From Minisyncoccota bacterium (GTDB lineage Bacteria; Patescibacteriota; Minisyncoccia; Phycocordibacterales; UBA9973): DNA of 64,000 nucleotides. The DNA is taken from positions 2,201 to 66,200 of the forward strand of contig JBBAAI010000003.1 of assembly GCA_041658325.1 (NCBI GenBank). Reading direction: 5' to 3'. Position 1 is the first letter of the stretch, and the number at the start of each line of letters is the position of its first letter. Made by a program: the position numbers and the translations under genes. The notes under the pieces were generated by a model. That model saw only the letters and a program-made list of their open reading frames with translations. It ran no database searches and was not told the DNA's origin. Positions 6,407 through 48,592 of this stretch are shown one piece after another.

Positions 6407-8407
6407 ATGCTAGAAAAAAAAAGCAGATCAAAATTAATTCTATTTAGGTTTTTTATTGTTGTCTTGTTGTTGTTTTTTGGCACTAAATTAGTTTTTGCAT
6501 CTGAAACAAATGGAATAATTGACGGAAATTATAAATACGCTTGGGGTGAAAATATTGGTTGGATTAATTTTGGTTGTGATAATTGCAATGTTAATGTTAC
6601 CGATGATGGTCTTTCGGGATATGCTTGGAGTACACAATATGGTTGGATAAATTTAGATCCAACTACTTCGGGAGTTCAAAATAACGGGCAAGGACTGCTC
6701 TCTGGTTATGCTTGGAGTCCAAATCTTGGTTGGATTAATTTTAACGGAGTTACGATATCCTCTAATGGATATTTTTTAGGTTATGCAACGATAGAATCTG
6801 ATAGTAGCCAAATTAATTTTAATTGCACCAATGCAGATTCTTGTAGTGGGGCAGATTTTAAAGTAAAAACTGATTGGAAACCAGCCAGCGCTAGACAGTC
6901 AGGAGGTAGTGGGGCTGGAGGTTCTGGTTTCCCTGTACCGCCAAATCCACCACCCGTCGTTCCTCCCACCATTCCTCCTGTTGTTCCACCAACAATTGTA
7001 AATGTAGTGGTGGATAATATCTCAGAAACCATAAATTCTATTTCTGATTCTTTTTTTAATTTATTTCAACCACAAAATAAACCTGAAAATACAATAGTTG
7101 AGATTCCTAAAATAGCGCCACTTTCATTAAAGGTGTTGTGGAATCTTTTGCCCAGAAAAGCCATAAAAGAATTTGTCTTTGCGCCGTTGCCATACGAAGT
7201 CCGTGTACTAGCTTCTAAATTTCCAGAACTCGACAGAACACTCAAAAGTGTCGGCATAAAAAGATTAACTGATATGAGTAAATTAAGTGGGGTAACTCTC
7301 AACCTTCCCGGACTTACGGAACTTACCAACACACTTAGAAATGTTGGGGCAGAAAGATTGGCTGGGGTAGATAAATTAAATAGCGTAAATTTCGATATTC
7401 CCGGGCTTTCTAATTTAGATGAAAAAATGGTAAATAATATTGGTGTAAACATAGGTACAGGGAAAATTTCCCTTATAAAAGGATTGCCGTTAACAAAATT
7501 TTCTCTGCTGGAAAAGAAAAACCTACCATCCGAATTCGTATTTGCTCGAACGAATGGTGAGCTTATTGATTTGAATGTAGCGATGTCAGTTAGTGAAAAA
7601 GGGGAAGTAACTCAAAAAATATCTTCTTTACCTGGCAAGACATTACGATTTGTGGTAAAGCCGATCAGCAAAGCTAGAAGCGTAACTGGTTATTTTATAT
7701 TTAAATCGGCCACACCTAAAATCACACAAAATCAAATTCCTCGATCTTCTCTCACTGCCTCGGCGCTATTTTCAATGAGTGGCTTAGTTGAAAAAACTTC
7801 CAAGTCTGTTCCCGTGGAAAATAAATTAGTGCTTTCTTCGTTTGAATACACTGACCTAGATCACGACGGAATATACACGGCTGACGTTGTTTCTCCTTCA
7901 GTGCCCGGTGAATATGAAGTTATCACTGTCATTGATTATTTAGATCCAGTACTCGGGGCTCGCCAAATGAGAATGATAACCGTTATTGACCCAGAAGGAT
8001 ATGTTTTTGAAAAAAATAACGGCAAAGAGACTCGTATTCCGTCAGCTATTATATCTCTTTATTCATTAAATAATTTAACTAAAAAATATGAGCTTTGGGT
8101 CGCGAAAGATTATCAACAGGAAAACCCGCAAATAACAGACGTTAGGGGAACTTATTCGTTTTTAGTGCCAGAAGGTTCCTATTATTTCCAGATAGAGGCA
8201 CCAGGCTATGATTTTTATCAAGGAAAAGCATTTGTTGTCGTAGAGGGAAGTGGAATCCACCAAAACATAGAATTAAAATCCAGCCGAGGGTGGTTTTCTG
8301 TATTTGACTGGAAAACCGTTCTTTTGATTGTCGTGTTATTATTATTAGTGTATAATTTATATCGTAATACCCTGCGAGATAAATTATTAAAATTTTCAAA
8401 CAAATGA
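6407..8407 (+). CDS. Secreted/anchored repeat protein (signal peptide, three Y-A-W-x-x-x-G-W-I-N-F/L repeats, Pro-rich linker, C-terminal TM anchor)
   Basis: N-terminal hydrophobic signal (FFIVVLLLFFGTKLVFA), repeats YAWGENIGWINF / YAWSTQYGWINL / YAWSPNLGWINF, PVPPNPPPVVPPTIPPVVPPTIV linker, C-terminal helix VLLIVVLLLLVY then basic tail; stop overlaps next start (ATGATGA). Confidence 0.5.
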   Translation: MLEKKSRSKLILFRFFIVVLLLFFGTKLVFASETNGIIDGNYKYAWGENIGWINFGCDNCNVNVTDDGLSGYAWSTQYGWINLDPTTSGVQNNGQGLLSGYAWSPNLGWINFNGVTISSNGYFLGYATIESDSSQINFNCTNADSCSGADFKVKTDWKPASARQSGGSGAGGSGFPVPPNPPPVVPPTIPPVVPPTIVNVVVDNISETINSISDSFFNLFQPQNKPENTIVEIPKIAPLSLKVLWNLLPRKAIKEFVFAPLPYEVRVLASKFPELDRTLKSVGIKRLTDMSKLSGVTLNLPGLTELTNTLRNVGAERLAGVDKLNSVNFDIPGLSNLDEKMVNNIGVNIGTGKISLIKGLPLTKFSLLEKKNLPSEFVFARTNGELIDLNVAMSVSEKGEVTQKISSLPGKTLRFVVKPISKARSVTGYFIFKSATPKITQNQIPRSSLTASALFSMSGLVEKTSKSVPVENKLVLSSFEYTDLDHDGIYTADVVSPSVPGEYEVITVIDYLDPVLGARQMRMITVIDPEGYVFEKNNGKETRIPSAIISLYSLNNLTKKYELWVAKDYQQENPQITDVRGTYSFLVPEGSYYFQIEAPGYDFYQGKAFVVVEGSGIHQNIELKSSRGWFSVFDWKTVLLIVVLLLLVYNLYRNTLRDKLLKFSNK

Positions 8408-8772
8408 TGATAGAAAATGAAAAGCGTTTTGTGGTCATATTTATTGTAATACTCGTTATCAGCAATGTATTTTTTGCTTACAAGTTTTTTTCCTTCTCTA
8501 AAGAATTAGAAACAATAAAATCTAATCAGGTAAAAGTTGAATTAAACCAAAAAATAATTAACTTTGCTTCAATGTTTATTAAAAAAGTATTACAAGCAGA
8601 AAAAGAAGTTGATTTTGAAACGAGGCTTTCACTTGAGAATGCGGTGCGTGATTTGAAAGACGAAGAAGTGATGGCCGAATGGCAAAATTTCACTGCGAGT
8701 AAAACAGAAGCAGATGCGCAGAATAGCGTGAAAAAGCTCTTAGGTATTTTGATAACCAAAATCCAGAAGTAA
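8404..8772 (+). CDS. Small membrane-anchored hypothetical protein
   Basis: 122 aa, single N-terminal TM helix (FVVIFIVILVISNVFFAY), start overlaps upstream stop (translational coupling). Confidence 0.4.
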   Translation: MMIENEKRFVVIFIVILVISNVFFAYKFFSFSKELETIKSNQVKVELNQKIINFASMFIKKVLQAEKEVDFETRLSLENAVRDLKDEEVMAEWQNFTASKTEADAQNSVKKLLGILITKIQK

Positions 8773-8799: not shown

Positions 8800-11700
8800 T
8801 TGAAAATTATGAAAAATATATTTTCTAAAATAAAAATAATATCAACGAACAAAATAGCTATTGCTTTATTTGTTTTTGTTGTGCTTGTTTTATTTTCAGC
8901 AAAAATGGTTTTCGCCGTTTGGAACGGTACTTTTTATGAACCGGGAGATACCTTAAATCCAGAATGTTTACCGACAGATGCAGATTGTGATGTTCGATCA
9001 CCACTTACTTCTGTAAATATAAGCGATACTGCCTATGATGCGACGACGTGGGATGGTGTGACGACGATATCTCCAAGTAAAAATGCTGTAAGGGATCAAA
9101 TAGAAACATTAGTAGCAAGTAATCATAATCCTCTTACTATTGGTACCGCTAATGGTCTTTCTTTAGCAACTCAAGTATTAAGTTTAGCGTTAGCTTCTAC
9201 TTCTACTACTGGAGCATTATCAGATACAGACTGGAATACTTTTAATAATAAAGCTTCAGCTCTTGGGGCAGACGATAACTATGTTACCGATGCGCAACTT
9301 GTAGTAGTCGGGAATACTTCCGGAACAAATTCTGGTGACAATGCTGTGAACTCTCTTTACTCTGGGCTCGCTGCTTCTAAACAAGATGCGTTAAATGGTA
9401 CTGGTTTTGTAAAAGCAACTGGTACAACTATTTCTTATGACAATTCAACTTATTTAGATACAGGGACTGCTTCCAGTACATATCTTCCTCTTGCAGGTGG
9501 AACTCTCACTGGTCTTCTGTCAACCAGCATTGATGGGAACAACGCCGTGACGGAGTTCTTGCAACTCACAAACTCAAATGAGCCGACAACAGGGCAAGTA
9601 GGCGACACGGCTTCCATCTCGTTTGATTTTTTCGGCACCATTAACAACGGGTCCAGTTATGCGCAAACTGAGGTCGCGAGGATCGAAGCGTATAAGTATG
9701 GAGATTTCTTCCACGCCACAGCACTCACAGACCATGATGTTGGGTTGAAGTTCTATACAATGGACGGGGGCACACAGAGAGAGACTGCATCCATGTCCGC
9801 TCCATTGGGTATAGGGTGGTTTCAACTCTTCTATGCTGGGACAATCGGCCCTGGGTTCTCTGCCACAAGTAGTTCAGCTATCTCGGCGACTACAAGTACC
9901 ATTGGGAACTTCGCATCCTTTAGTGCTAGTAACATATATGCGAAAGGTGGAGCGCTTCGTTCTCAGAACTCTGCAGCGACAGAGACATATTTCTACGCGG
10001 GTCAAGCATACACCGCTGTCAATTCTCTTTCCGCATATACCTGGGGCAACACAGCTACCGCAATTTCAGGCCTAGACACCGGCCTTTCGCGTGCGGCTGC
10101 GGGGGTTGTCCGCATCGGCTCTGGCGCAAGCGGCACGACGGACACGGGCGACCTCGTAATGCAGGACAACATCGAGTTCGAGGGTAGCGCGGCAGACGAT
10201 TTCGAGACACAGTTCACCGTCACCAACCCCACCGCAGACCGGACAATCACCATCCCCGATCTTACTGGAACGCTGGCACTTACTTCTGATTTAGGAACAT
10301 ATCTACCATTAGCAGGTGGAACCCTCACGGGTAATCTTATTGTTGGCGTTGCACCGACAGCTTCTGCAAACTACGGAACATTTTCTCTAGGAGGCGGTGC
10401 ATTTGATGGATCAACCGCTGGATATTTTGTTGGCTCAGCTTCGGGAACATCTTTAGCAGTGAATGAAGTATCTGGATATGTTGGTAATCTAATAGACGCA
10501 CAGGTGGGGGGAGTAAGTAAGTTTAGTGTGGATAATACAGGGGGAGTGCGCATAGGCACAACCACAACAAATACAGCAGGAACTATTCGTTATCTCAATT
10601 CTGATTTTCAGGGGTATGATGGCACAAGTTGGAAATCTTTGACTAATCTTGCATCAATTACAGGAGAAGCAACTGGTTTTCCGAATAGGACTGATACTGC
10701 AATTTCATTTAATAACGGTACTAGAAATTTTACAATAACCGGAACAAATTTTAAGGTGTATAGCAAGGGTGCAGAATTTACAAAAAATACAGAATCAATA
10801 GAAATACCAGATGTAACTGGATTATATTTTATTTATTATGATGCTACGACTCAAGCTCTTTCACAGAGCACTTCTCCTTGGTCACTCATAGATGGCACTA
10901 TCAACATAGGGACAGTGTATTGGAATACTTCTTTAGCTACAGGTCTTTTAGGGGAAGAACGACACGGGGTCACTATGGATGGAAATACTCATGAATTATT
11001 ACATAACACTGTTGGGTCGAGGTATAATACAGGTTTTACTGGTACTTTTAATTCTCCTCCCACTTTCTCTGTGACAGCTGGAAGTTTTTATGATGAAGAT
11101 ATAAAAAACGAAACTCTTTCTACTGAAACCACAGCTAGAGTTTTATATAGAACAGGGGCAAGTAGTACTTTCACAGCAGAGCAGGTAAATTATTATCACG
11201 AAGTCAGTGATATCATCCAATATGATAATGCTGGTTCGTTAGCTGATGTTACGAACAATAACTATGTCGCTTATTGGATTTTTGCTACCAATGACACAAT
11301 TACCCCCATTTATTCTTTAATGGGGCAAAGACAAGATACTAGCTTAGCAAATGCTCGAGCAAACAATACTTACGAAGGATTGTCTCTTAGCTCATTACCA
11401 TTCAAGGAAATGAAAGCTTTATATAGAATTATTTTAAGAAGAAGTGGCACCAGTGAGACATATCAAGAAATTCAAGATTTACGCTCAATCTCAAATTTAT
11501 CTTCAGGAACTTACCTTGCTTCAAATCACAGTTTACTGACAGGGCTTACGGATGATGATCATCCTCAATATTTGAATATTAATGGCAGAAGTGGAGGACA
11601 GACAGTTATAGGAGGTACAGATGCTACAGATATTTTAACCATACAAAACACGAGTACTACTGGCACGACGCTTACCAATCCAGCAATGTATCTGAAAGTA

Positions 11701-14346
11701 GGTGATTCTGGTGGAACTACAGCAATGACAATACTAAATAATGGCAACGTCGGAATCGGAACGACAGCACCAGCTTCTCGTTTTCATCTCGGTGTTGCGC
11801 CGACAGCTTCTGCAAATTACGGGACACTTTCTCTGGGTGGTGGAGCATTCGACGGCTCAACTTCAGGATACTTTGTTGGCTCGGCTTCTGGAACATCTTT
11901 AGCAGTAAATGAAGTATCTGGATATGTTGGGAATCTTCTTGATGCACAAGTGGCGGGAACAAGTAAGTTTAAGGTGAACAATGCAGGCATGGCGACGGCC
12001 ACCGCGTTCGTAGCGAACAACGGGGCCACCGCCGCTGGGACGCTCCAACTATTCGAGGACTCCGACAACGGTACAAACTCTGTCACTCTCCAGGGACCAG
12101 CGTCAACGGCTGATGTGACCGTGACGCTTCCGGCGTTGACCGGCACCGTGGCGCTCATGGGCGCAGCTACGCAGTCGGGGGATTTTTACACGAGCGGAAA
12201 TACATTCTCTGTGAGATCATGGATCGGTACCGCTTCGGGCAACGGTGAACTTTATGTGCGAAACGCGTCATTGCAACAACTAGTTTATGTCAGTGGGGCC
12301 AATGGTGGAGTCTACCTGCCGTCTACCGGTGCCGTCCGTTTCAGTAATTCTACTACCTCATGGGGGGGGAGCGACTCGGGAATAGACAGGTTCGATGTCG
12401 GGGTGGTTGGGATCACCAATGGCTCAACTGGCGATGGCAACTTGCGCATGCTGAGCAATATCGAGTTCGAGGGGTCAGCCGCCGATACGAATGAAACTCA
12501 GTTGACCGTCACCAACCCCACCACAGACCGGACCATTACCATCCCCGACCTTACTGGGACGCTTGCGACACTGGAGAACGCGAACACTTGGAGCGCCTCG
12601 CAATCACTAACTGCCGCAGATTCTTCTGCTTTGACTGACCTCCTAATTAATCCAACAGCAAAAACAAGCGGGAATTTGATAGATTTGCAAGTAGCATCTG
12701 CAAGTAAATTTTATGTAAGCTCTGCAGGAAACGTATTTCCTGCTGGAGAAATTTATTTGGGAGCAGGACAAGGTTTGTCTACCTTGGCACTTGGTGGAAC
12801 ACTTATTCTACAAGGTAGAAATATGAACGCTGCGACTGGAGCCGCTGCGGTAAGAATGGGGATAGGAACTCATTCTCCAAGTAGTGGAACAAGTATCGGA
12901 GTAGATGTAACGCCAACAATAAATCAAACGGACACTGCAGCAACATCCGTTTTAAGAGTATCACCCTATTTGCAAGCGACAGGTTCAGGAACTCAACTTT
13001 TAGCTGACTTTGGAACAAATACTGCAGGAAGTGGTGGGGGGACACATACTTCAATTTTCAAGTTTGGAACTAATGGAAATTTAACCTTAACTGGAAACGT
13101 TGTAAACTCAAACAGTGGCACAGGATTTTACTCTGGGTATTCGGTATCAGGAACTGGGAATGTTAATTTAATAGTAGCTCAAGGGGCAGCGAGAACCAAC
13201 ACTTCAGGTGCTCAAGCGTTCTTTGCGGTTATCCCGTCATACAACCAAGCTAGTGGAACTGCCGCCAATACCGACCTCCTCATTAACAGAACTCAAACCG
13301 CAGTGGGTAGTGGAGCACAACTTTTGATTGATGCACAAGTGGGAAGCGTAAGTAAGTTTAGTGTAACGAATGCGGGGGTGGTTCAACAAAAAGGTTGTAC
13401 AACAGCTGGAGCGCTATTTGCGGATACTTCAGGGAATGTAATTTGTGATCCTTCAAGAGCAGAATTTAAGGACAATATTGTTGATTTGAATAACGGTCTT
13501 TCAAGTATTCTTGCTCTTCGTCCTGTTTCTTATACTTTTAAACCAGAAATGAATATGGGAAGTGAAACTTATTTTGGATTTATATCTGGGGAAGTTGCTT
13601 TAATTGCTCCAGAATTTGCTACTTATGATGCAGAAGGAAAACCTTATGGATTGGACACAAAGGCTCTTCTTGCCACGACCATCAAAGCTATCCAAGAAAT
13701 GAATTTGAGTTTAGAAGGAATTGCTGGAATTAGTATCCCTGTTCCTGGTTCTCCTACAGAATCTTTTGTTACTGCTTTCTTTGCTAAGATGGGTGCTTGG
13801 TTGGCAGATGCGGGTAATGGAATAGCCAATATTTTTGCCAAAGAAGTTAATACAAATACCCTATGTGTTTCTGACGATTCCGGCTCGAAAACTTGTATAA
13901 CTAAAGCTCAACTAGATACTTTGCTTTCTGGGGCGGGTTCTACTGCTACCTCAACAGTGCCACCAGTAGTAGTCCCTACTTGTACCGCTCCACAAACCTT
14001 AGTAGATAATGTTTGTACCGATCCAGCGCCAGAAACTCCTACTTGTACAGCTCCACAAACCCTCGTGGATAATGTCTGTACTGATCCGACAGCCGTAGAT
14101 CCTCCCGTAGTAGAACCTCCTGTCTGTACAGCTCCTCAAACCTTAGTAGGCAATGTCTGCACTGATCCGACGCCAGTAGCTCCAACATGTATAGATCCAC
14201 AAATTTTAGTAGATAACGTTTGTACGGACCCTGCGCCTGCGCCTGTAATTCCACCACCAGAACCCACTCCGCCACCAGTACCCGATCCCGTAGTAGAACC
14301 GATCCCAACACCCGCACCTGATCCAGTAGTAGAAACTACTCCATAA
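8800..14346 (+). CDS. Giant (1848 aa) membrane-anchored fibre/adhesin-like protein with phage tail-fibre-type intramolecular chaperone (Peptidase S74-like) domain and C-terminal Cys-loop repeats
   Basis: N-terminal signal-anchor; internally duplicated cassettes (LGVAPTASANYGTxSLGGGAFDGST..GYFVGSASGTSLAVNEVSGYVGNL.DAQV.G.SKF; IEFEGSAAD..ETQ.TVTNPT.DRTITIPDLTGTLA); S74-like block SRAEFKDNIVDLNNGLSSILALRPVSYTFK...GFISGEVALIAPEF...GLDTKALLATTIKAIQEMN; five CTAPQTLVDNVCTDP repeats. Confidence 0.7.
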   Translation: MKIMKNIFSKIKIISTNKIAIALFVFVVLVLFSAKMVFAVWNGTFYEPGDTLNPECLPTDADCDVRSPLTSVNISDTAYDATTWDGVTTISPSKNAVRDQIETLVASNHNPLTIGTANGLSLATQVLSLALASTSTTGALSDTDWNTFNNKASALGADDNYVTDAQLVVVGNTSGTNSGDNAVNSLYSGLAASKQDALNGTGFVKATGTTISYDNSTYLDTGTASSTYLPLAGGTLTGLLSTSIDGNNAVTEFLQLTNSNEPTTGQVGDTASISFDFFGTINNGSSYAQTEVARIEAYKYGDFFHATALTDHDVGLKFYTMDGGTQRETASMSAPLGIGWFQLFYAGTIGPGFSATSSSAISATTSTIGNFASFSASNIYAKGGALRSQNSAATETYFYAGQAYTAVNSLSAYTWGNTATAISGLDTGLSRAAAGVVRIGSGASGTTDTGDLVMQDNIEFEGSAADDFETQFTVTNPTADRTITIPDLTGTLALTSDLGTYLPLAGGTLTGNLIVGVAPTASANYGTFSLGGGAFDGSTAGYFVGSASGTSLAVNEVSGYVGNLIDAQVGGVSKFSVDNTGGVRIGTTTTNTAGTIRYLNSDFQGYDGTSWKSLTNLASITGEATGFPNRTDTAISFNNGTRNFTITGTNFKVYSKGAEFTKNTESIEIPDVTGLYFIYYDATTQALSQSTSPWSLIDGTINIGTVYWNTSLATGLLGEERHGVTMDGNTHELLHNTVGSRYNTGFTGTFNSPPTFSVTAGSFYDEDIKNETLSTETTARVLYRTGASSTFTAEQVNYYHEVSDIIQYDNAGSLADVTNNNYVAYWIFATNDTITPIYSLMGQRQDTSLANARANNTYEGLSLSSLPFKEMKALYRIILRRSGTSETYQEIQDLRSISNLSSGTYLASNHSLLTGLTDDDHPQYLNINGRSGGQTVIGGTDATDILTIQNTSTTGTTLTNPAMYLKVGDSGGTTAMTILNNGNVGIGTTAPASRFHLGVAPTASANYGTLSLGGGAFDGSTSGYFVGSASGTSLAVNEVSGYVGNLLDAQVAGTSKFKVNNAGMATATAFVANNGATAAGTLQLFEDSDNGTNSVTLQGPASTADVTVTLPALTGTVALMGAATQSGDFYTSGNTFSVRSWIGTASGNGELYVRNASLQQLVYVSGANGGVYLPSTGAVRFSNSTTSWGGSDSGIDRFDVGVVGITNGSTGDGNLRMLSNIEFEGSAADTNETQLTVTNPTTDRTITIPDLTGTLATLENANTWSASQSLTAADSSALTDLLINPTAKTSGNLIDLQVASASKFYVSSAGNVFPAGEIYLGAGQGLSTLALGGTLILQGRNMNAATGAAAVRMGIGTHSPSSGTSIGVDVTPTINQTDTAATSVLRVSPYLQATGSGTQLLADFGTNTAGSGGGTHTSIFKFGTNGNLTLTGNVVNSNSGTGFYSGYSVSGTGNVNLIVAQGAARTNTSGAQAFFAVIPSYNQASGTAANTDLLINRTQTAVGSGAQLLIDAQVGSVSKFSVTNAGVVQQKGCTTAGALFADTSGNVICDPSRAEFKDNIVDLNNGLSSILALRPVSYTFKPEMNMGSETYFGFISGEVALIAPEFATYDAEGKPYGLDTKALLATTIKAIQEMNLSLEGIAGISIPVPGSPTESFVTAFFAKMGAWLADAGNGIANIFAKEVNTNTLCVSDDSGSKTCITKAQLDTLLSGAGSTATSTVPPVVVPTCTAPQTLVDNVCTDPAPETPTCTAPQTLVDNVCTDPTAVDPPVVEPPVCTAPQTLVGNVCTDPTPVAPTCIDPQILVDNVCTDPAPAPVIPPPEPTPPPVPDPVVEPIPTPAPDPVVETTP
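13453..13710 (+). other. Peptidase S74 / tail-fibre intramolecular chaperone auto-processing domain (putative Ser-Lys dyad S-R-A-E-F-K)
   Basis: Motif-by-motif agreement with the endosialidase/tail-spike C-terminal chaperone consensus (SD.RLK.DI...L.LRPVSY.wK....GfiAQEv....PElV.......dY..L...Li.AiQEL). Confidence 0.6.
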
Positions 14347-24477: not shown

Positions 24478-24548
24478 GCGGTCGTAGTTTAGTGGTAGAA
24501 CTGGTGCTTCCCAAGCATCGGGCGCGAGTTCGATTCTCGCCGGCCGCA
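24478..24548 (+). tRNA. tRNA-Gly (anticodon CCC)
   Basis: Cloverleaf folded by hand: acceptor GCGGTCG/CGGCCGC, D arm GTTT-AGTGGTA-GAAC, anticodon arm GGTGC-TTCCCAA-GCATC, T arm GCGAG-TTCGATT-CTCGC, discriminator A; CCA not encoded. Confidence 0.8.
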
Positions 24549-24568
24549 CAAAGTCCCCACTTGACAAG

Positions 24569-24580
24569 CATGCTATAATG
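24569..24580 (+). promoter_or_regulatory. Extended -10 promoter element (TGCTATAAT) upstream of glutaredoxin-like gene
   Basis: tgctataat read directly; an adjacent TTGACA is only 7 nt away so is not a functional -35. Confidence 0.35.
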
Positions 24581-24610
24581 AAGATATTAAAAGTTAAACG
24601 ATAAAATATT

Positions 24611-24844
24611 ATGAAAAACGTAACAATTTATTCAACCCCGACCTGTCACTTTTGTCACATGGCAAAAGATTTTTTTACTGCCAACAGTATTGTTTATACA
24701 GAATATGACGTGGCAAGTGATCTTGATAAAAGAAAAGAAATGATAGAAAAAAGCGGCCAAATGGGTGTGCCGGTAATAGTAATTGATGGCGAAATCACTG
24801 TCGGTTTTGATAAACCAAGAATCGTTGGTTTACTAGCACTTTAA
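24611..24844 (+). CDS. Glutaredoxin-like protein (thioredoxin fold, CxxC)
   Basis: 77 aa; TIYSTPTCHFCHMAKDFF active-site CHFC, GVPVIVIDGE typical of NrdH/glutaredoxin-like proteins. Confidence 0.7.
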   Translation: MKNVTIYSTPTCHFCHMAKDFFTANSIVYTEYDVASDLDKRKEMIEKSGQMGVPVIVIDGEITVGFDKPRIVGLLAL

Positions 24845-24848
24845 TTTG

Positions 24849-24920
24849 TGCCCTCACTCCGAATCGAACGGGGATCTATTCCTTAGGACGGAACTGTTCT
24901 ATCCATTGAACTATGAGGGC
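24849..24920 (-). tRNA. tRNA-Arg (anticodon CCT)
   Basis: Reverse complement folds: acceptor GCCCTCA/TGAGGGC, D arm GTTC-AATGGATA-GAAC, anticodon arm GTTCC-GTCCTAA-GGAAT, T loop TTCGATT (one C-A mismatch in T stem). Confidence 0.7.
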
Positions 24921-24995
24921 TATCCCTACAATCTAACACATAAAAAGCTTATTTGGAATTGGTTTTTTTATTTATTTATGCTAAATTATATATAA

Positions 24996-25252
24996 TGCAA
25001 CCAGAGGAAAAAAAGTTATTAGAACAAACTTACGAGCTTGTCGAAGAGAACAATCGCATGTTGCATTCTATAAAGCGTACCATGTTTATGGCACGTATTA
25101 TGAGTGTTTTGTATTGGGTGTTGATTATAGGTGTTTCTGTCGGGGCATTTTATTTTATTCAGCCATATCTGGATCAATTGATGGATACATATAGTGGTGC
25201 GAAAAGTAATCTCGACAACCTTGGTTCTTTGTTGAAAAAATTGCCAAATTAA
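24996..25252 (+). CDS. Small hypothetical membrane protein
   Basis: ORF 24953-25252; likely start MQPEEKK; one TM helix (IMSVLYWVLIIGVSVGAFYFI). Confidence 0.35.
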
Positions 25253-25256
25253 AACT

Positions 25257-25328
25257 GCCTGGGTAGCTCAGTAGTAGAGCGTTCCCCTGAAGAGGGACAG
25301 GTCGGGTGTGCGATCCACCCCCCAGGCA
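25257..25328 (+). tRNA. tRNA-Phe (anticodon GAA)
   Basis: Acceptor GCCTGGG/CCCAGGC, D arm GCTC-AGTAGTA-GAGC, anticodon loop CTGAAGA, T arm GGGTG-TGCGATC-CACCC, discriminator A. Confidence 0.7.
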
Positions 25329-25335
25329 CAGAATG

Positions 25336-25830
25336 TTAGATTGATTTTATTTTTACGTTGTTTTTCTTTTCTTTATCCACCTTTTTGATTTTTATAGTAA
25401 GAAGGCCATGTCTTTCGGTGGCTTCAACTTGTTCTGGTTCTACTTCTGCGGGAAGTGACAAGGTGCGAGAAAATTTTCCCCAATAAAGTTCTTTAGTAAA
25501 ATAATTATCTTCATCAATGGTTCTAGATTCTTCACGTTTACCACGAATAGTGATCATGTCTCGAGAAATTGATAGTTCTAAATCCTCTGGTCTAACTCCG
25601 GCTACCATTGTTTGGACTATGATGTCAGTTGGTGTTTGAAAAACGTCAATTGATAATTCCGCCTCATCATTTTCTTCTTCTATCCAGCTGTTACCATTTT
25701 TTTTATCCCCCTTATTTCCTTTTGTTGAATAATCTTTTTTAGTTTCTTCACGATCATCGTCTATACTCATACTACCAGTTAATCTTTCAAAAAAACTTCT
25801 TTTTTTATTTTCCATAAATTTCCCCGTCAC
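25336..25830 (-). CDS. Hsp20/alpha-crystallin family small heat-shock protein
   Basis: 164 aa; alpha-crystallin domain (IDVFQTPTDIIVQTMVAGVRPEDLELSISRDMITIRGKRE...GKFSRTLSLP...AEVE...A....GLLTIKI); start may be the internal Met at 25815. Confidence 0.8.
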   Translation of the reverse strand: MTGKFMENKKRSFFERLTGSMSIDDDREETKKDYSTKGNKGDKKNGNSWIEEENDEAELSIDVFQTPTDIIVQTMVAGVRPEDLELSISRDMITIRGKREESRTIDEDNYFTKELYWGKFSRTLSLPAEVEPEQVEATERHGLLTIKIKKVDKEKKNNVKIKSI

Positions 25831-25856
25831 GACGAGGCAAGTTAGTTAATTAATAA

Positions 25857-26549
25857 TTATTCACTCATTCTTCTTACTTTTTCAAAAAGTAACATAACGA
25901 CTACAGTAACGACCCATAAAAATGCAAATACTTTCAAGAAATCATTTCCATCATTTCTTATTATAAAAAAATTAAAGGTACTATGCAAGGCTATGGCAGC
26001 CAGGAAACCGATAAATAGATACCACCCTTTTCTAAAACTTCCTAAATAGAAAGAAATTCCAAGCGCAATACCTAGAATTCCTGAAGAGACAGTATGAAGA
26101 AGAGTAGATCCTAAAAAGCGAAGTTGCCCAGTAAGTAAACCCACAATTGCTTGATTTATTGAAAATGGTTTGATTAAAAACAAAATATTTTCAAGTGCGG
26201 CGAAACCCAAAGCTGCCGTGATGAGATAGATCGGCCAGTCTATAGGTTTATTAATATAATTTGTTTTATAAAGAATAAGTAAGACAGCAAGATATTTTAT
26301 TATTTCTTCTGCGCTGGCCCACATAATGAGCTCCATCTCTTGTGAACTTATATGAGATTGTATAAATTTTTGAATTGGTAAAACTACTATGACTGCTACC
26401 ATCCCCATAATAAAAACAATAGCAAGCAACCCTTTGGGTTCAGGGTTTTCTTCTTCTTTCATCCAAAACCATAACCACAAAAAAGAGGGGATAATTCCTC
26501 CCAGAAACGCTAAGGCTAAAATTTTCGGGTTGCTTAGTAAGAGGGCCAT
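25857..26549 (-). CDS. PrsW-like intramembrane metalloprotease (putative)
   Basis: 230 aa, 7-8 TM helices; EExxK-like AEEIIKYLAV, FxxxE (FAALENILF) and H-containing helices (LLHTVSSGILG, ALHSTFNF) as in the PrsW/CPBP family. Confidence 0.45.
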   Translation of the reverse strand: MALLLSNPKILALAFLGGIIPSFLWLWFWMKEEENPEPKGLLAIVFIMGMVAVIVVLPIQKFIQSHISSQEMELIMWASAEEIIKYLAVLLILYKTNYINKPIDWPIYLITAALGFAALENILFLIKPFSINQAIVGLLTGQLRFLGSTLLHTVSSGILGIALGISFYLGSFRKGWYLFIGFLAAIALHSTFNFFIIRNDGNDFLKVFAFLWVVTVVVMLLFEKVRRMSE

Positions 26550-28669
26550 TTTTCAACCATCAATAGATTTTTATTTTCTTTTTGTAATATCGACCAGATT
26601 TCTTCTGTGACAAATGGAATAAATGGATGAAGAGCTTTTAATAAAGTAGTCAAATGAGTGTAAAGAAGCGCCTTAGCTGAGTCGCCATTTTTATTTTCCA
26701 GTATTTTTCTTTTAGATCTTTCAATAATGATATCTGCAAAGGTGTGCCAAAAGTAATGATAAAGTTTTTCGGAAACAAGATGGAATTTATATTCATCCAT
26801 CTCTTTAGTTATTTCTTTTATAAATATTTTTAATTCTTCGTCTGATTTTTTATCTTCTTCGTCATAGCTCGGTGTTTCTGGAATATTAAAATCTTTTGTA
26901 TTTTCTAATACAAAACGAGTAGCATTCCAAATTTTATTAGCAAAATTTTTATATCCTTTAATTTTTTCTTCAGATATCTTTGAGTCCGTGCCTGGAGCTG
27001 TACCCACGATGAGAGCCATGCGTCCCGCATCAGCACCGAATTTTTCCGCTATCTCAAGCGGATCGATACCATTATTTAAAGATTTGGACATTTTTTGTCC
27101 CTTGGCGTCACGAACTGTTCCATGCAAAAATACATTTTTAAAAGGTATTTCGCCTAAGGCATATTCTGACATCAAAACCATTCTAGCGACCCAAAAGAAA
27201 AGTATTTCATATCCTGTTTCCAAAACATCGGTTGGATGAAAAGTCGTTAGGTCTTTTGTTTTTTCTGGCCAACCTAATGTTGAAAAAGTCCAGAGTCCAG
27301 AAGAAAACCAAGTATCTAATGTATCTTCATCTTCCCTCCATCCACTGCCTGGATTTTCTCCAACAACTATTTCTTCTCCTTTATACCAAACTGGTATTCT
27401 ATGTCCATACCAGATTTGCCTAGAAATACACCAATCACGAAGATTTTCTATCCAATGAAAATATGTTTTAGAAAAATATTCAGGTATTATTTTTATTTCA
27501 TCTTTTTCAAAAGGTTCACGCATTAAATCTTTAAGAGATTTATTATTCCTTTCTTTTATTGGTTTATTTACGTCTATAAACCATTGTAATTTAGGTAGTG
27601 GTTCTATGATTCCACCTGTTCGTTCAGCCGTAGCAATATTTTGTTTTATTTCTTCTTCTTTTTCTAAAAGGTCTTGAGAGCGTAACCATTCTACGATCAC
27701 TTCTCTCGCCTCCGTTGTTTTTTTGCCTAGTAATTTTTCTCCACCAACAGACATTTTTGCGTATTCGTTTATAACTTGAGGGCGAAGTAAGTCGTGTCTT
27801 TCTGCCATTTCCCAATCAATCATAGAATGGGCAGGGGTAACACCAAGCGCACCTGTGCCGAATTCTGGATCAACTTCTTTATCGGCTATTATTTTGATAT
27901 GAATTGGTATTTCACAGAATTCTAAATCATACTCTTTTCCGACAAATTCTGTGTATCTTTTATCATCTGGATGCACTGCCACTGCCACGTCACCAACTTT
28001 TGTTTCTGGTCTACTGGTTGATATAAAAATGGGGAAGTCCTTGCTGTATTTAAAAGTATAAAGTTTTGCGTTACGTTCTTCGTAAACGATTTCATCGTCT
28101 GAAATCGTAGTTTGCCCTTTTGGATCCCAATTAACAATTCTATTCCCACGGTAAATTAATCCATCGTCATACATTTTTTTAAATATTGTATTTACAGCGA
28201 GATTTCTTTTTTTATCTAGAGTAAAAGCTTCACGAGACCAATCGCATGATGCTCCCATTACTTTTATTTGGGAAATGATTGTATCATGGCTTTCCTTAGC
28301 AAATTCGTTTATTCGTTTTAATATTTCTTCTCGCCCTAAATCATAACGAGATTTTCCTTCTTTTTTCTGTATTTCTTTTTCTACCTTTGATTGAGTTGCT
28401 ATGGCAGCGTGGTCTGTGCCCGGAAGCCAAAGAGTCTTGAATCCCTGCATTCTTTTATAACGAATCATTATATCTTCAAGAGTAATCATTAATGCATGTC
28501 CCATGTGAAGTACTCCAGTAACATTCGGCGGGGGCATCATTATTGTAAACGTCTTTTCTCTTTTGTCAGGTAGATTATCTGGATTAAAAAAACCGCTTTC
28601 CTCCCAAAGCTTGTAAATTCTTTTTTCAGTTGTTTTAGGATCATAGGGTTTCAGTAATTTCTCATCCAT
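26534..28669 (-). CDS. valS: Valyl-tRNA synthetase (short form lacking the usual C-terminal extension)
   Basis: 711 aa; PPPNVTGVLHMGHA HIGH region, KMSKS (QKMSKSLNNG), editing-domain collinearity with ValRS. Confidence 0.85.
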   Translation of the reverse strand: MDEKLLKPYDPKTTEKRIYKLWEESGFFNPDNLPDKREKTFTIMMPPPNVTGVLHMGHALMITLEDIMIRYKRMQGFKTLWLPGTDHAAIATQSKVEKEIQKKEGKSRYDLGREEILKRINEFAKESHDTIISQIKVMGASCDWSREAFTLDKKRNLAVNTIFKKMYDDGLIYRGNRIVNWDPKGQTTISDDEIVYEERNAKLYTFKYSKDFPIFISTSRPETKVGDVAVAVHPDDKRYTEFVGKEYDLEFCEIPIHIKIIADKEVDPEFGTGALGVTPAHSMIDWEMAERHDLLRPQVINEYAKMSVGGEKLLGKKTTEAREVIVEWLRSQDLLEKEEEIKQNIATAERTGGIIEPLPKLQWFIDVNKPIKERNNKSLKDLMREPFEKDEIKIIPEYFSKTYFHWIENLRDWCISRQIWYGHRIPVWYKGEEIVVGENPGSGWREDEDTLDTWFSSGLWTFSTLGWPEKTKDLTTFHPTDVLETGYEILFFWVARMVLMSEYALGEIPFKNVFLHGTVRDAKGQKMSKSLNNGIDPLEIAEKFGADAGRMALIVGTAPGTDSKISEEKIKGYKNFANKIWNATRFVLENTKDFNIPETPSYDEEDKKSDEELKIFIKEITKEMDEYKFHLVSEKLYHYFWHTFADIIIERSKRKILENKNGDSAKALLYTHLTTLLKALHPFIPFVTEEIWSILQKENKNLLMVEKWPSY

Positions 28670-28707
28670 ACCTTAATAATATCACATTTATCCTGACTCG
28701 AGAAGGA

Positions 28708-29769
28708 TTAAAGCCTTAAATTACCATTCGCTTTTATACTATCTATTTTAGGAGTTTCCTTTTTATTTTTTATGTAATTTAAATATCCAGCGATACCGAT
28801 CATTAAAGAGTTATCTCCCGTGAGCTCTTTACTCGGCAGAAAAAGTTTTATCTTTTTTCCAGTTATTTCTTTCATTTTGTTCCTCAGATGTTCATTTGCA
28901 GATACTCCTCCTGCCACGATGAGAGTTTTGATTTTATATTTTTCAATTGCTTTAGCTGTTTTGTGTACCAGACACTCAATGGCGGCGTTTTCAAATTCAA
29001 GAGCTATTTGTGCTTTTGTTTTTTTATTTATTGGTTCAATTTTCTTTATTAAATAAAGGACGGCTGTTTTTAGTCCAGAGAAAGAGAAATCTAAATTTTT
29101 GCTATAAAGCATGGGTCGAGGTAGTTTGATATTTTCATTTTTTGTTTTATTTCTTTCTTGTTCAGCTAATTTTGAAATTTCTGGCCCGCCAGGATAGGGA
29201 AGATCTAGCATGCGAGCAACTTTATCAAAAGCTTCGCCGACGGCATCATCTAGAGTTTGTCCAATAATTTCATAATTCATCCATTTTTTAATGAGAACTA
29301 ATTCTGTGTGGCCACCAGAGACTAATAACGCGAGCGCTGGGTTTTTTATTTTTAAAACTTTAAACTTCTTTTTTTTATTTGCAAAAATAGAAAGCATATG
29401 TCCTTCCATGTGGTTTACTGGCATGATGGGCACATTCCATTTTTTTGCCAACTCTTGTGCAAAGGTAATTCCTGTCCAAAGTGTTGGTTCTAATCCTGGA
29501 CCATAGGTTACGGTAATAAGGTCAACGGGCTTTTTTTTATTTTTTATTTTTGATTCTTTTAAAGTCTTTTCCAGAATAATAGGCAGATTTTTTATGTGTT
29601 CTCTCTTGGCAAGCGCTGGAAAAACTCCTCCGTAAGGAATATGGATACTAATTTGCGAGGAGACATTGTTTGCCAGAACTTCAAAAGAAGCATTTGTGAT
29701 GCCTCCTTTTACTTCCATTATACTTATTCCTGTATCGTCACAAGATGTTTCTATACTTAAAATTTTCAT
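28708..29769 (-). CDS. tsaD: tRNA N6-adenosine threonylcarbamoyltransferase TsaD
   Basis: Kae1/TsaD motifs (MKILSIETSCDDTGISI, HMEGHML, GGVSAN); ORF-track N-terminal extension to 29844 overlaps tRNA-Val so the start is placed at MKILSIETS. Confidence 0.85.
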   Translation of the reverse strand: MKILSIETSCDDTGISIMEVKGGITNASFEVLANNVSSQISIHIPYGGVFPALAKREHIKNLPIILEKTLKESKIKNKKKPVDLITVTYGPGLEPTLWTGITFAQELAKKWNVPIMPVNHMEGHMLSIFANKKKKFKVLKIKNPALALLVSGGHTELVLIKKWMNYEIIGQTLDDAVGEAFDKVARMLDLPYPGGPEISKLAEQERNKTKNENIKLPRPMLYSKNLDFSFSGLKTAVLYLIKKIEPINKKTKAQIALEFENAAIECLVHKTAKAIEKYKIKTLIVAGGVSANEHLRNKMKEITGKKIKLFLPSKELTGDNSLMIGIAGYLNYIKNKKETPKIDSIKANGNLRL

Positions 29770-29783
29770 GCTAATTTTTATTT

Positions 29784-29859
29784 TGGTGCGCGATACAGGG
29801 ATCGAACCTGTGACCTTGTCTACGTCAAAGACACGCTCTACCAACTGAGCTAACCGCGC
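29784..29859 (-). tRNA. tRNA-Val (anticodon GAC), CCA encoded
   Basis: Reverse complement: acceptor GCGCGGT/ATCGCGC, D arm GCTC-AGTTGGTA-GAGC, anticodon arm TGTCT-TTGACGT-AGACA, T arm ACAGG-TTCGATC-CCTGT, 3-prime ACCA. Confidence 0.8.
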
Positions 29860-29868
29860 GCCCTTTAT

Positions 29869-31098
29869 TTATAGCATTTTTTCTTTGATTCTTTCAAGCG
29901 CCAAGATAAAAGCCCCCATACGAAGAGATGTTTTATTTTCTTGTGCGTTTTGAAATATTTTTTTACCTGCGTCTTCCATCATCGGTTTTAATTTTTCAAA
30001 AACCTGTTGCTCGGTCCAATGTTCCTTTTTTAGGTTTTGTTCCCATTCAAAACAAGAAACTATAACGCCTCCAGAATTTGCCCAAATATCTGGCAATATA
30101 GGAATATTTTTTTTGAACAAAATTTCGTCTGCTTCTGGGTTAATAGGACCATTTGCAAGTTCTAAAATGACTTTAGCTTTGACATTGTCTGCGTTTTTTT
30201 CATTGATTTCATTTTCAAATGCGGCGGGGATTAAAAGATCGCACCCTGTGGCTAACAGTTCCAAATTTGTTATATCTTTACTGCCAGGGAAATTAGAAAG
30301 GTTGCTCGTTGTTTTTTTGTGCTCTAAAAGTTTTTCTATGTCTATTCCATCCGGATTATAAACTCCTCCTTTGGAATCTGAAATTGCGATAATCGTATGT
30401 CCAGCCTTATTCCAAATTTTTGCCGCGTTACTACCAGCATTTCCGAAACCCTGAATGGCTACTTTGCATTTTTCTGGTAAATTTAATTCTTTTTTTAATG
30501 CTTCAAAAGCATAAAAACCGCCCTGAGCAGTAGATGTTCCTCTTCCTTCAGAACCGCCTTTATCAAGTGGTTTGCCTGTTATAACTGCTCCGCTTGTGTC
30601 ACCAGTAATTTTCCCGTATTCGTCTGAAATCCAGGCCATTATCTCTGGTGTCGTGTTTACGTCTGGAGCAGGGACATCTTTACGAGGTCCAATAACATCT
30701 GTAAGTCTTTGTGCCCATCCACGCGAGAGCCTTTCCAGTTCTCCTTTTGATAATTTTTTAGGATCTACAGTTACTCCACCTTTTCCACCACCCATAGGAA
30801 TACCTCCAACGGCGCACTTAAGAGTCATCCAAAAAGCGAGTGCTTTTACTTCATTTATTTCAGTATCGGCGTGATATCTAATTCCTCCTTTATAAGGTCC
30901 AAGTGCGTCATTATACTGCACTCTGTATCCTTCAAAGATTTTCAGGGTGCCATCGTCCATCTTAACTGGAATTGAAATTCTAATGTCTCGATCGGGTTGC
31001 CTTAGGCGGGCAATAAATTCATTACCGAAATTTTTTGCTGTAGTTATTTTGGCGACCTTGTCTAATTGGGCCATTGCGTTTTGAAAAGGGTTTTGCAT
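29869..31098 (-). CDS. Glutamate dehydrogenase (Glu/Leu/Phe/Val dehydrogenase family)
   Basis: 409 aa; catalytic GGGKGG-containing region (AVGGIPMGGGKGGVTVDPK), NAD(P)-binding GFGNAGSNAA. Confidence 0.85.
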   Translation of the reverse strand: MQNPFQNAMAQLDKVAKITTAKNFGNEFIARLRQPDRDIRISIPVKMDDGTLKIFEGYRVQYNDALGPYKGGIRYHADTEINEVKALAFWMTLKCAVGGIPMGGGKGGVTVDPKKLSKGELERLSRGWAQRLTDVIGPRKDVPAPDVNTTPEIMAWISDEYGKITGDTSGAVITGKPLDKGGSEGRGTSTAQGGFYAFEALKKELNLPEKCKVAIQGFGNAGSNAAKIWNKAGHTIIAISDSKGGVYNPDGIDIEKLLEHKKTTSNLSNFPGSKDITNLELLATGCDLLIPAAFENEINEKNADNVKAKVILELANGPINPEADEILFKKNIPILPDIWANSGGVIVSCFEWEQNLKKEHWTEQQVFEKLKPMMEDAGKKIFQNAQENKTSLRMGAFILALERIKEKML

Positions 31099-31212
31099 AT
31101 TATTTTACTTTTAATTATTAATGACTTTTATTCTACTCTTTCTATTAAAATTCGCTATAAAATATTTATGAAGACAGATTTTTTATAATAGCGCAAGTTT
31201 TTTTACTATTAA

Positions 31213-31800
31213 TTAAGTTTGACGTTTTTCAATTTCTTTTAGTACTTTTGGGATTTTTTTAAAATCTGCTATCAGAACCTCACGCATAGAGCCGTCGTAT
31301 AATGCCGCGGCTGGATGATAAAGAGGGAAGAAATATTTTGTAGATACATCTTTAAAAGGTTTAATTAATAGTTTTCCATGGGCGCCCGAAATTTGTAAAT
31401 CTGGAAAAAAGTTATTCATTGCGTGACGCCCTAGGAAAATTATCAGCTTGGGTGAAATTATTTTCAGTTCTTCTGAGAGCCATTCTCGGCAAGATGCTTT
31501 TTCTTCAGGCAGGGGATCGCGATTATCTGGCGGGCGATATTTTACTATATTTGTGATATAAATATCTTTTCTTTCTAGTTTTATTAATCCAAGCATTTCG
31601 TTCAAGAATTTTCCCGCTGCTCCTACAAAGGGTTCTCCTTGTTCATCTTCTTTTTTTCCTGGCGCTTCACCGATAAAAACAATTTCTGCATTAGCATTAC
31701 CGACTCCGGGCACGGCTTGTGTCGCAGTTTTTTTGAGTTCACTCTCACATTCCTCCTTCCACTTTTTGTGTAGATTTTCTAGTTTTTTATTTTTATCCAT
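31213..31800 (-). CDS. Uracil-DNA glycosylase, family 4
   Basis: GEAPGKKEDEQGEPFVGAAGKFL motif and HPAAALY; ORF-track N-terminus (to 31824) overlaps tRNA-Glu so start placed at MDKNKK. Confidence 0.8.
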   Translation of the reverse strand: MDKNKKLENLHKKWKEECESELKKTATQAVPGVGNANAEIVFIGEAPGKKEDEQGEPFVGAAGKFLNEMLGLIKLERKDIYITNIVKYRPPDNRDPLPEEKASCREWLSEELKIISPKLIIFLGRHAMNNFFPDLQISGAHGKLLIKPFKDVSTKYFFPLYHPAAALYDGSMREVLIADFKKIPKVLKEIEKRQT

Positions 31801-31803
31801 TTG

Positions 31804-31875
31804 TGACCCTACTGGGAATCGCACCCAGATTACCAGCTTGAAAAGCTGATGTCCTAACTATTAGACGATAGGGCC
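31804..31875 (-). tRNA. tRNA-Glu (anticodon TTC)
   Basis: Reverse complement GGCCCTATCGTCTAATAGTTAGGAC...; anticodon arm TCAGC-TTTTCAA-GCTGG; T arm CTGGG-TGCGATT-CCCAG. Confidence 0.8.
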
Positions 31876-31901
31876 AAAAACATTTAGTATCATAACATTT
31901 T

Positions 31902-31930
31902 TTGAAAAAATCGCAATTTATTGTTATAAT
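31902..31930 (+). promoter_or_regulatory. sigma70-like promoter TTGAAA-17-TATAAT; -10 box 6 nt upstream of ATG (leaderless MFS transcript)
   Basis: ttgaaa 31902-31907, tataat 31925-31930, ATG 31937. Confidence 0.5.
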
Positions 31931-31936
31931 TCAAGA

Positions 31937-33124: not shown

Positions 33125-33192
33125 ACTCACGATCGAGTTGCCCCGATGCCGGTTTTCGAAACCGGTGCCTTCAACCACTCAGCCACGCCTCC
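33106..33192 (-). tRNA. tRNA-Ser (anticodon CGA), long variable arm
   Basis: Reverse complement GGAGGCGTGGCTGAGTGGTTGAAGGC ACCGG-TTTCGAA-AACCGG... long variable arm CATCGGGGCAACTCGATCG, T arm GTGAG-TTCAAAT-CTCAC, discriminator G. Confidence 0.8.
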
Positions 33193-48476: not shown

Positions 48477-48520
48477 CCTATTTGTGAACTAATCATGACA
48501 TTTGCAAAAGTTTCATTTTG

Positions 48521-48592
48521 TGACCCTACCGGGAATCGAACCCGAATTTAATCCTTGAGAAGGATCCGTCCTAACCGTTAGACGATAGGGCC
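48521..48592 (-). tRNA. tRNA-Glu (anticodon CTC)
   Basis: Reverse complement GGCCCTATCGTCTAACGGTTAGGAC GGATCC-TTCTCAA-GGATT ... T arm CCGGG-TTCGATT-CCCGG; near-identical backbone to the tRNA-Glu(TTC) at 31.8 kb. Confidence 0.8.

Follow-up and report, generated by a model that had tools for sequence, protein, structure and literature searches.

Taken together, our analyses suggest that a single gene in the 64-kb window (the whole stretch of 64,000 nucleotides of contig JBBAAI010000003.1 analysed here) encodes a trimeric surface fibre of a bacterium of the candidate phyla radiation (CPR, or Patescibacteria). The fibre, at positions 8800–14346 of the forward strand, appears to be exported by the general secretory (Sec) pathway, to be built largely from domesticated phage tail-fibre parts and to be cut by a Peptidase_S74 (S74) domain, behind which a module and a tail would aid assembly outside the cell. 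We give this reading about an even chance of being right. To our knowledge, host recognition and attachment in CPR bacteria are largely unknown and very few of these organisms have been cultured; we found no paper linking S74 domains with CPR/Patescibacteria.

The gene is an open reading frame (ORF) of 1848 residues with a TTG start (MKIMKN...). An alternative ATG at 8809 (MKNIFSK...) gives a protein of 1845 residues identical to NCBI entry P0001, a difference of three residues that affects no conclusion. This public protein, labelled ‘tail fiber domain-containing protein’ of Candidatus Paceibacterota, together with the ORF list, bears out the frame given in the first-pass annotation of this DNA and the CPR affiliation of the organism, and the fibre protein is found on at least three assembled contigs with identical neighbours. 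Its parts are, in order, a signal peptide (residues 1–39), a family-specific N-terminal region (40–265), a Thr/Gly/Ala/Ser-rich fibre with internal duplications, a phage receptor-binding protein (RBP) shoulder-type domain (623–897), a second fibre segment, the S74 domain (1552–1640), a module of 80 residues and a Pro-rich tail.

The first-pass annotation had recognised an S74-like chaperone domain and had named beforehand three findings that would count against it: no match to the family profile, an unrelated predicted fold, and a Ser/Lys pair that varies among homologues. The assignment withstood all three. The only Pfam match in the fibre is PF13884 (Peptidase_S74) at residues 1554–1606 (E = 1.4e-5; 25.7 bits, gathering score 22). 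Our own hidden Markov model (HMM), built from this domain and its relatives, extends the S74 domain, also termed ICA for intramolecular chaperone auto-processing, to residues 1552–1640 (13453..13719, forward strand), leaving 208–211 residues after it, in agreement with the roughly 210 first estimated. An AlphaFold2 (AF2) single-chain model of residues 1490–1725 has a predicted local distance difference test score (pLDDT) above 90 across the S74 part. Its top match in a Foldseek search of the PDB was the ICA domain of MyRF (7dc3; E 4e-4, probability 1.00, template-modelling score 0.52–0.55 on the target), with further matches to a gp12-type chaperone (3gud; probability 0.96) and the endoNF chaperone (3gw6; 0.63–0.75); these are the three family members with solved structures. 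When 50,697 GenBank phages were searched by tblastn, the matches were tail-fibre and ‘chaperone of endosialidase’ genes with 31–35% identity, confined to the S74 part of the query. The S74 signal is well above chance, with a score beyond the curated cutoff, a Ser and a Lys that do not vary and a fold that agrees. Searching PDB sequences with either the C-terminal 348 residues or the full protein brought no match at E ≤ 1, and an NCBIfam scan of the whole protein gave nothing useful.

The predicted autocleavage site, P1551–S1552 (13450..13455, forward strand; local sequence ...ICDP / SRAEFK, cut at the slash), has the P-S-x4-K layout of MyRF and endoNF. The Ser1552 codon starts at nucleotide 13453, the position singled out in the first-pass annotation, and Lys1557 lies five residues further on. 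In an alignment of 40 sequences both columns (S63 and K68) are invariant, and in 61 domains they are at least 90% conserved. Cleavage of MyRF maps between P586 and S587, and its S587/K592 pair is equivalent to S911/K916 of endoNF (PMC8326128). In this family the domain trimerises via C-terminal helices, templates the upstream trimer and then cuts at the Ser (PMC8326128). Every S74/ICA feature that we examined is present; cleavage and trimerisation of the fibre are predicted from knowledge of the family. With phage S74 fibres and spikes the protein shares an RBP-type domain upstream of the chaperone. Just before the cut lies a Cys pair, C1533...C1549 (13396..13446, forward strand), kept in close homologues, which is predicted to form a disulfide stapling the C-terminal tip of the mature fibre.

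A second phage-like part lies in the middle of the protein. Residues 545–1000 have 168 homologues with 30–56% identity, in proteins of 350–790 residues from many non-CPR sources, some of which carry collagen repeats, Mtd_N or a terminal S74. We examined the genomic context of two of the 168, and both lie among phage structural genes: P0273 among T4-type Gp23, gp13 and prohead protease, and P0317, which bears a terminal S74, after SU10-type portal, capsid and adaptor genes. The domain is also found in a 735-kb uncultured megaphage. An AF2 model of residues 613–1000 is confident at residues ~623–897 (10666..11490, forward strand; pLDDT > 90, predicted template-modelling score 0.73), and Foldseek placed a phage 812 baseplate chain (9euj chain G, probability 1.00) first, identifying a phage RBP shoulder-type beta domain. 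With homologues in T4-like and SU10-like structural modules, this domain makes the phage-fibre nature of the protein stronger than the first-pass annotation had claimed. In the phage-type homologues the domain starts a median of 63 residues from the N-terminus, S74, if present, is terminal, and none has the CPR module described below. Residues ~613–1640 thus have the appearance of an entire phage fibre, with shoulder, shaft and S74, set between a CPR-specific front and back. Nine residues of the central domain (R721, H722, H731, H735, D765, D767, E870, D893 and R895) are invariant in 64 homologues, which come from CPR as well as from other bacteria and from phages. They could bind a metal on the trimer axis or make up a catalytic centre that has escaped recognition. 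For the same part of the protein (10960–11490, residues 721–895) we also noted the motifs ERHG..MD..THE.LH, DEDI and DDDHPQY, and that H910 and H921 are nearly invariant.

The front of the protein had been described as an N-terminal membrane anchor. The hydrophobic segment is real, and is the sole transmembrane (TM)-like stretch of the fibre protein (Kyte-Doolittle 2.76), but a conserved VFA↓VW motif fits a cleaved Sec signal peptide. Residues 1–39 (8800..8916, forward strand) comprise a basic n-region, a hydrophobic core of 16 residues and a putative signal-peptidase site, V-F-A then V-W, of the AXA type (V at -3, A at -1). About 30 homologue N-termini share the pattern M-K/R...KK, a hydrophobic stretch of ~15 residues and K-x-V-F-A ↓ (V/A/T)-W-(N/D)-G-x-F-Y-x-P-G-(D/E)-T-L-N-P-E-C-L-P-(T/S)-D-x-(D/N)-C-D-V, with conservation starting exactly at the predicted mature N-terminus. 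Because the n-h-c layout and the motif are conserved, we take residues 1–39 for a probable Sec signal peptide that is cleaved off, and not for an anchor. The 14 Cys of the protein fall into seven sequential local pairs, with none across the ~1470 residues from C63 to C1533, a pattern that fits an extracytoplasmic protein. Some module-bearing S74 fibres, P0153 and P0162, begin instead with a conserved segment that looks cytoplasmic (MSP.LFFDNKKYISAKEAS.ITGYS.DY.GQLAR..KIDSK.I), behind which a TM helix lies at residues ~80–150; they are a signal-anchor variant of the family.

Behind the signal peptide, residues 40–265 (8917..9594, forward strand; including a C56–C63 loop) form the family-defining region and the probable docking region of the fibre. 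Residues ~100–250 are common to about 100 of 120 homologues, and the middle of the protein is shared by at most five; with one part so widely shared and the other so rarely, the architecture is a mosaic of a constant N-terminal region and exchangeable distal parts. Two genes lie directly upstream on the same strand. The first (6407..8407) encodes an exported protein of 666 residues with four (G)YAW..(I)GWINF-type repeats, a Pro-rich linker, a weak CarboxypepD_reg-like domain and a C-terminal TM helix. The second (8404..8772), recognised from its ORF and from synteny, encodes a protein of 122 residues whose TM helix is N-terminal; this gene starts in overlap with the stop of the first one and ends 27 nucleotides before the fibre gene. 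Neither protein was assigned to a Pfam or NCBIfam family, and promoter and terminator scans around this cassette gave signal at shuffle level only. The pair recurs in other CPR genomes. All eight informative loci that encode a fibre with the conserved N-terminal region (L013, L017, L019, L020, L024, L039, L041 and L045) have a homologue of the 666-residue protein upstream, five of them with the small protein in between; of the ~14 remaining module-bearing loci in which the DNA upstream could be seen, L012 alone has such a homologue. On the strength of this linkage with the conserved N-terminal region, we infer that the cassette membrane proteins serve as a docking platform, or as an assembly factor, for that region. 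Attachment through the N-terminal region and two co-encoded membrane proteins is more likely than an N-terminal anchor.

Among the best 120 homologues, 62 have S74: 36 show the canonical layout, ending 3–11 residues after it, and 26 continue for 58–232 residues; phage-type relatives stop 2–21 residues past it. The long tails share a block (...ESFVTAFF....WLADAxNGIxNIFAxEVxTxxLCVSDxxGxKTCITKxQLDALLxxAG) that is followed by Pro/Thr/Glu-rich low-complexity sequence. In the query this module, located by alignment, profile search and AF2 at residues ~1636–1715 (13705..13944, forward strand), consists of a helix, WLADAGNGI..IF, a disulfide beta-hairpin (C1689–C1699) and a second helix (TKAQLDTLL). 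An N and two Cys are invariant in the module alignment, and a W, an F and an L nearly so. AF2 predicts helix, disulfide beta-hairpin and helix with pLDDT 70–90, the first helix continuing the last S74 helix. A Pfam scan of 28 module sequences gave scattered matches at E > 0.03 and no family.

To map its distribution, an 84-position profile of the module was run with HMMER against 1.84 billion cluster representatives. We found 2288 representatives at E ≤ 1e-3 and 894 at E ≤ 1e-10, always with the module close to the C-terminus; the query scores 108.5 bits (E 1.3e-26). Directly upstream of the module lies S74 in 131 of 163 bearing proteins and another domain in 18, the remaining 14 being fragments. 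A locus search of species-representative genomes and IMG/VR, seeded by a tight 8-sequence alignment, found the module at 57 loci of the former, with S74 upstream in 47 of 58 module ORFs, and not at all in pattern scans of IMG/VR; among the 50,697 GenBank phages searched by tblastn, no match reaches into the module. All taxonomically labelled sources but one are CPR/Patescibacteria (Paceibacterota, Nomura-, Zambryski- and Kaiserbacteria, Minisyncoccia and ‘Saccharibacteria’), often with several copies per genome. The exception, L006 (DATDXK010000115.1), is a 3-kb contig (2991 bp) binned as ‘Candidatus Nanoarchaeia archaeon’ that carries a module-bearing S74 fibre fragment; it is probably a mis-binned CPR contig, and would be notable if genuinely DPANN.

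The region behind S74 had been called unusual. This holds against characterised phage proteins, but within CPR it is recurrent (2288 clusters, ~80% directly after S74). Likewise, the statement that S74 otherwise stands at the extreme C-terminus is correct for phage-type relatives, but MyRF already offers a precedent for a non-terminal position. The module is unnamed, and the gene studied here is a typical member of a large undescribed class with thousands of relatives. Since it is also found after non-S74 domains in some CPR fibres, the module behaves as an independent C-terminal unit. In P0012, P0016 and P0019 we observed a second, non-S74 C-terminal fibre domain, about 150 residues before the module (...TEGTNHLDIFDGTAPVGTL...LLSPH...NYWVFDS...GKSL.IDME..), and in P0022 yet another (NPDYVFEKYF...).

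The protein ends in a Pro/Thr/Val-rich low-complexity tail (residues 1716–1848; 13945..14343, forward strand; 27% Pro). It was first described as containing five CTAPQTLVDNVCTDP loops; we count four, of the form CX10C(T)DP, at residues 1728, 1749, 1776 and 1797 (13981–14025, 14044–14088, 14125–14169 and 14188–14232, forward strand), with a fifth, unrelated loop of the form CX9C (C1689–C1699) inside the module. A DNA tandem-repeat search did not report the loops as an array, because their spacing is irregular. In 163 proteins the tail past the module has a median length of 91 residues (10–90% range, 53–146) and a median Pro fraction of 0.185; several long tails also bear CTAPQTLVDNVCTDP-type loops, Cys loops overall occurring in 17 of the 163 and a hydrophobic stretch in two. 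The tails of P0015, P0034 and P0043 carry a different Cys loop, C.DG(I).NQDE.(D/G)ID.GG(V/I)C, with a likeness to calcium-binding motifs of the DxDxDG type. Such differing loops in relatives point to mini-knobs that can be exchanged between tails. Hydropathy speaks against a TM anchor in either the module or the tail, and we rejected one (19-residue Kyte-Doolittle maximum of 0.91 for windows starting at residues 1630–1700). A sortase anchor was also rejected, with LPXTG-like strings only internal (residues 229, 502 and 1173) and an end (...PDPVVETTP) that has no hydrophobic segment.

We propose the following course of events. The chain would be exported and its signal peptide removed at VFA↓VW. 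The S74 domains of three chains would trimerise via their C-terminal helices and template the folding of the upstream fibre, and the Ser1552/Lys1557 dyad would then cut P1551–S1552. The products would be a mature fibre of 1512 residues with a disulfide-stapled tip, ending ...GNVICDP, and a detached fragment of 297 residues (S74, module and tail). The mature fibre would stay on the cell by docking, through its conserved N-terminal region, on the pair of membrane proteins whose genes lie just upstream. Until the chains trimerise, the module and tail would hold their C-termini, the parts exported last, together at the envelope; both would afterwards be discarded with the chaperone. This step may be an adaptation to Sec export of a C-terminally nucleated assembly that evolved in the cytoplasm (compare MyRF, where the ICA is on the tethered side). 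Stated in full, namely that CPR bacteria have domesticated complete phage receptor-binding fibres, Sec-exported and mounted through a lineage-specific N-terminal region on a two-protein membrane platform from the same cassette, with a lineage-specific ‘tether-and-release’ module and a tail that are cut off with S74, the proposal is a tentative one.

The tethering role is suggested by a correlation with export signals: a signal-peptide-like N-terminus is found in 41 of 74 module-bearing proteins vs none of 41 with a terminal S74 (Fisher p = 7.5e-11), in sets that came from different searches and are phylogenetically non-independent. This limit is one of several points that weigh against our reading. 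Thirty-three module-bearing proteins have no detectable signal; at least two of these have a later TM segment, and many others look truncated. Cleavage, trimerisation and surface location are predictions for every member of this fibre family, and the AF2 model, being of a single chain, cannot show how the module packs in a trimer. The module follows non-S74 C-terminal domains in ~11–20% of cases, so that its role is not strictly S74-specific. It contains neither a TM segment (maximum hydropathy 0.91) nor a sortase motif that could account for tethering, and its helix is weakly amphipathic (hydrophobic moment 0.19–0.26), a value that does not settle a membrane-interfacial placement. Finally, a conserved module (W/N/F/C/C/L) and Cys loops are somewhat unexpected in a fragment that is supposedly discarded.

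In a rival reading, the same exported S74 fibre carries a module that merely elaborates the chaperone, its extra helices and hairpin stabilising the S74 trimer, with the Pro-rich tail a neutral disordered appendage and no tethering involved. Phage chaperone domains characterised so far are indeed larger than the 58-position Pfam core and helix-rich, with a C-terminal coiled coil that drives trimerisation (PMC8326128). The run of the first module helix out of the last S74 helix fits such an elaboration, as do the great variation in tail length, the rarity of Cys loops, and the lack of TM or sortase signals. However, the module also stands after unrelated non-S74 C-terminal domains, is absent from all phage-type terminal S74 proteins examined, and correlates with export signals, and a Pro-rich tail of at least ~50 residues is nearly always present. 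We consider this explanation doubtful.

Small disulfide knobs borne on stalks rich in Pro are a typical feature of extracellular binding proteins. The C-terminal region might be the working end of the fibre, with S74 only trimerising the chain (uncleaved, or retained after the cut) and the module and Cys-loop tail forming an adhesive tip for a host cell or the cell's own wall. The module and CTAPQTLVDNVCTDP loops are conserved, and the different loop (C.DG..NQDE.DID.GG.C) at the same place in other relatives suggests exchangeable binding units. Most tails, however, are pure low-complexity sequence without loops, and unless cleavage takes place it is hard to see why the Ser/Lys dyad and the Pro before it are so strictly kept. 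In phage proteins and in MyRF, moreover, the two sides part after the cut (PMC8326128). An adhesive C-terminal tip is therefore unlikely.

The surroundings of the gene speak to its cellular nature. The fibre lies between MurJ/LeuRS on one side and an ABC exporter/LepA on the other, among neighbours that include LeuRS, a TPR protein, MurJ, the ABC exporter, LepA and a dehydrogenase, confirming the chromosomal location first proposed for it, and related fibres of other CPR genomes also lie among these housekeeping genes. The GC content of the fibre gene is 0.43–0.47 vs ~0.35 around it. This excess resides in codon positions 1 and 2 (0.50), and GC at position 3 (GC3) is 0.33 vs 0.25–0.33 in the neighbours. 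With GC3 so near that of the neighbours, we read the excess as a composition effect of a Thr/Gly/Ala/Ser-rich protein, and rejected recent horizontal transfer. A prophage origin was rejected as well, the flanks being housekeeping genes without phage genes. That the gene is a structural tail-fibre gene of a CPR prophage or phage remnant, as its NCBI name, the phage homologues of its central and S74 domains and its raised overall GC might imply, is thus largely refuted and highly improbable, given these flanks and their recurrence in other CPR genomes, the compositional nature of the GC excess, a PHROGs scan of the whole protein without a match, a Sec signal peptide that is not expected on a virion protein, and the absence of the module from the viral collections searched (IMG/VR and GenBank phages).

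Other features of the window were also recorded. Within the fibre gene, a duplicated segment has copies at 10345..10541 and 11791–11987 (forward strand; 83% nucleotide identity), and DNA repeat comparison found a further duplicated segment of 74 nucleotides at 10204–10277 and 12493–12566 (forward strand). The window contains seven tRNA genes, at 24478–33192 and 48520–48592 (Gly-CCC, Arg-CCT, Phe-GAA, Val-GAC, Glu-TTC, Ser-CGA and Glu-CTC), and an Rfam scan of all 64 kb brought no family beyond tRNA to its gathering score.

The locus suggests that CPR bacteria reuse the phage answer to host recognition and attachment: receptor-binding fibres that are modular and trimeric, have a folding domain able to cleave itself, and have been rebuilt for Sec export. 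The adhesin or host-attachment role put forward in the first-pass annotation is a presumed one. If the full proposal is true, the S74 autoprotease would have a third functional context besides phage virions and eukaryotic MyRF, and the fibre would be a candidate for the apparatus by which episymbiotic ultra-small bacteria recognise their hosts, with phage-like specificity modules that can be swapped. The conserved three-gene cassette may form the membrane base of the fibre. Undescribed so far, and open to direct testing, are the CPR architecture, its unnamed module, the domesticated RBP core of phage type and the cassette of membrane proteins. The objects at hand are the predicted P1551–S1552 cut site, a domain family without a name (at least 2288 protein clusters) by which exported S74 fibres are marked, and the cassette itself. 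For annotation, the name ‘tail fiber domain-containing protein’ in a CPR genome is not evidence of a prophage.

Compared with known systems, the fibre shares with the phage S74/CIMCD proteins (endosialidases, K5 lyases, the T5 L-shaped tail fibre and GA-1/phi29-type gp12) its HMM membership, S-x4-K dyad and fold, and the placement of S74 after a long fibre and a phage RBP-type domain. Unlike in those proteins, S74 is not at the extreme C-terminus, with ~210 residues following, and the gene is a chromosomal CPR gene whose product has a Sec signal peptide, no virion adaptor, and a predicted assembly outside the cytoplasm. The ICA of MyRF (7dc3) is the best structural match and has the same P-S-x4-K cut site; there too S74 is internal, and the cut parts an N-terminal trimer from a C-terminal remnant (predicted here to be 297 residues, 208 of them beyond S74). 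MyRF is thus both the nearest structure and the nearest logic, though its remnant has a true TM helix after the ICA, whereas the query has none after S74, and its released part is a transcription factor, whereas the N-terminal product of the query is a predicted extracellular fibre. S74/ICA biology would gain a bacterial, extracytoplasmic and non-terminal architecture between the phage and MyRF cases.

The central domain superposes over ~120–150 residues, with 9–12% identity, on the RBPs of the lactococcal siphophages p2 and 1358, on the TssK shoulder of the type VI secretion system and on the long tail fibre of cyanophage A-1(L). In contrast to these, it stands in mid-chain after a CPR-specific stalk of ~600 residues, and not near the N-terminus for baseplate docking. 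In being a long, fibrous surface protein, predicted to be exported and trimeric, with Pro-rich regions, the query also resembles YadA-type autotransporters and Gram-positive Pro-rich wall-spanning proteins, and a few of its relatives carry YadA head repeats (PF05658). The query itself has no YadA Pfam match at E ≤ 1 and no autotransporter or LPXTG features; unlike the YadA-type proteins, with their membrane beta-barrel anchor, it is predicted to trimerise by means of a phage S74 chaperone.

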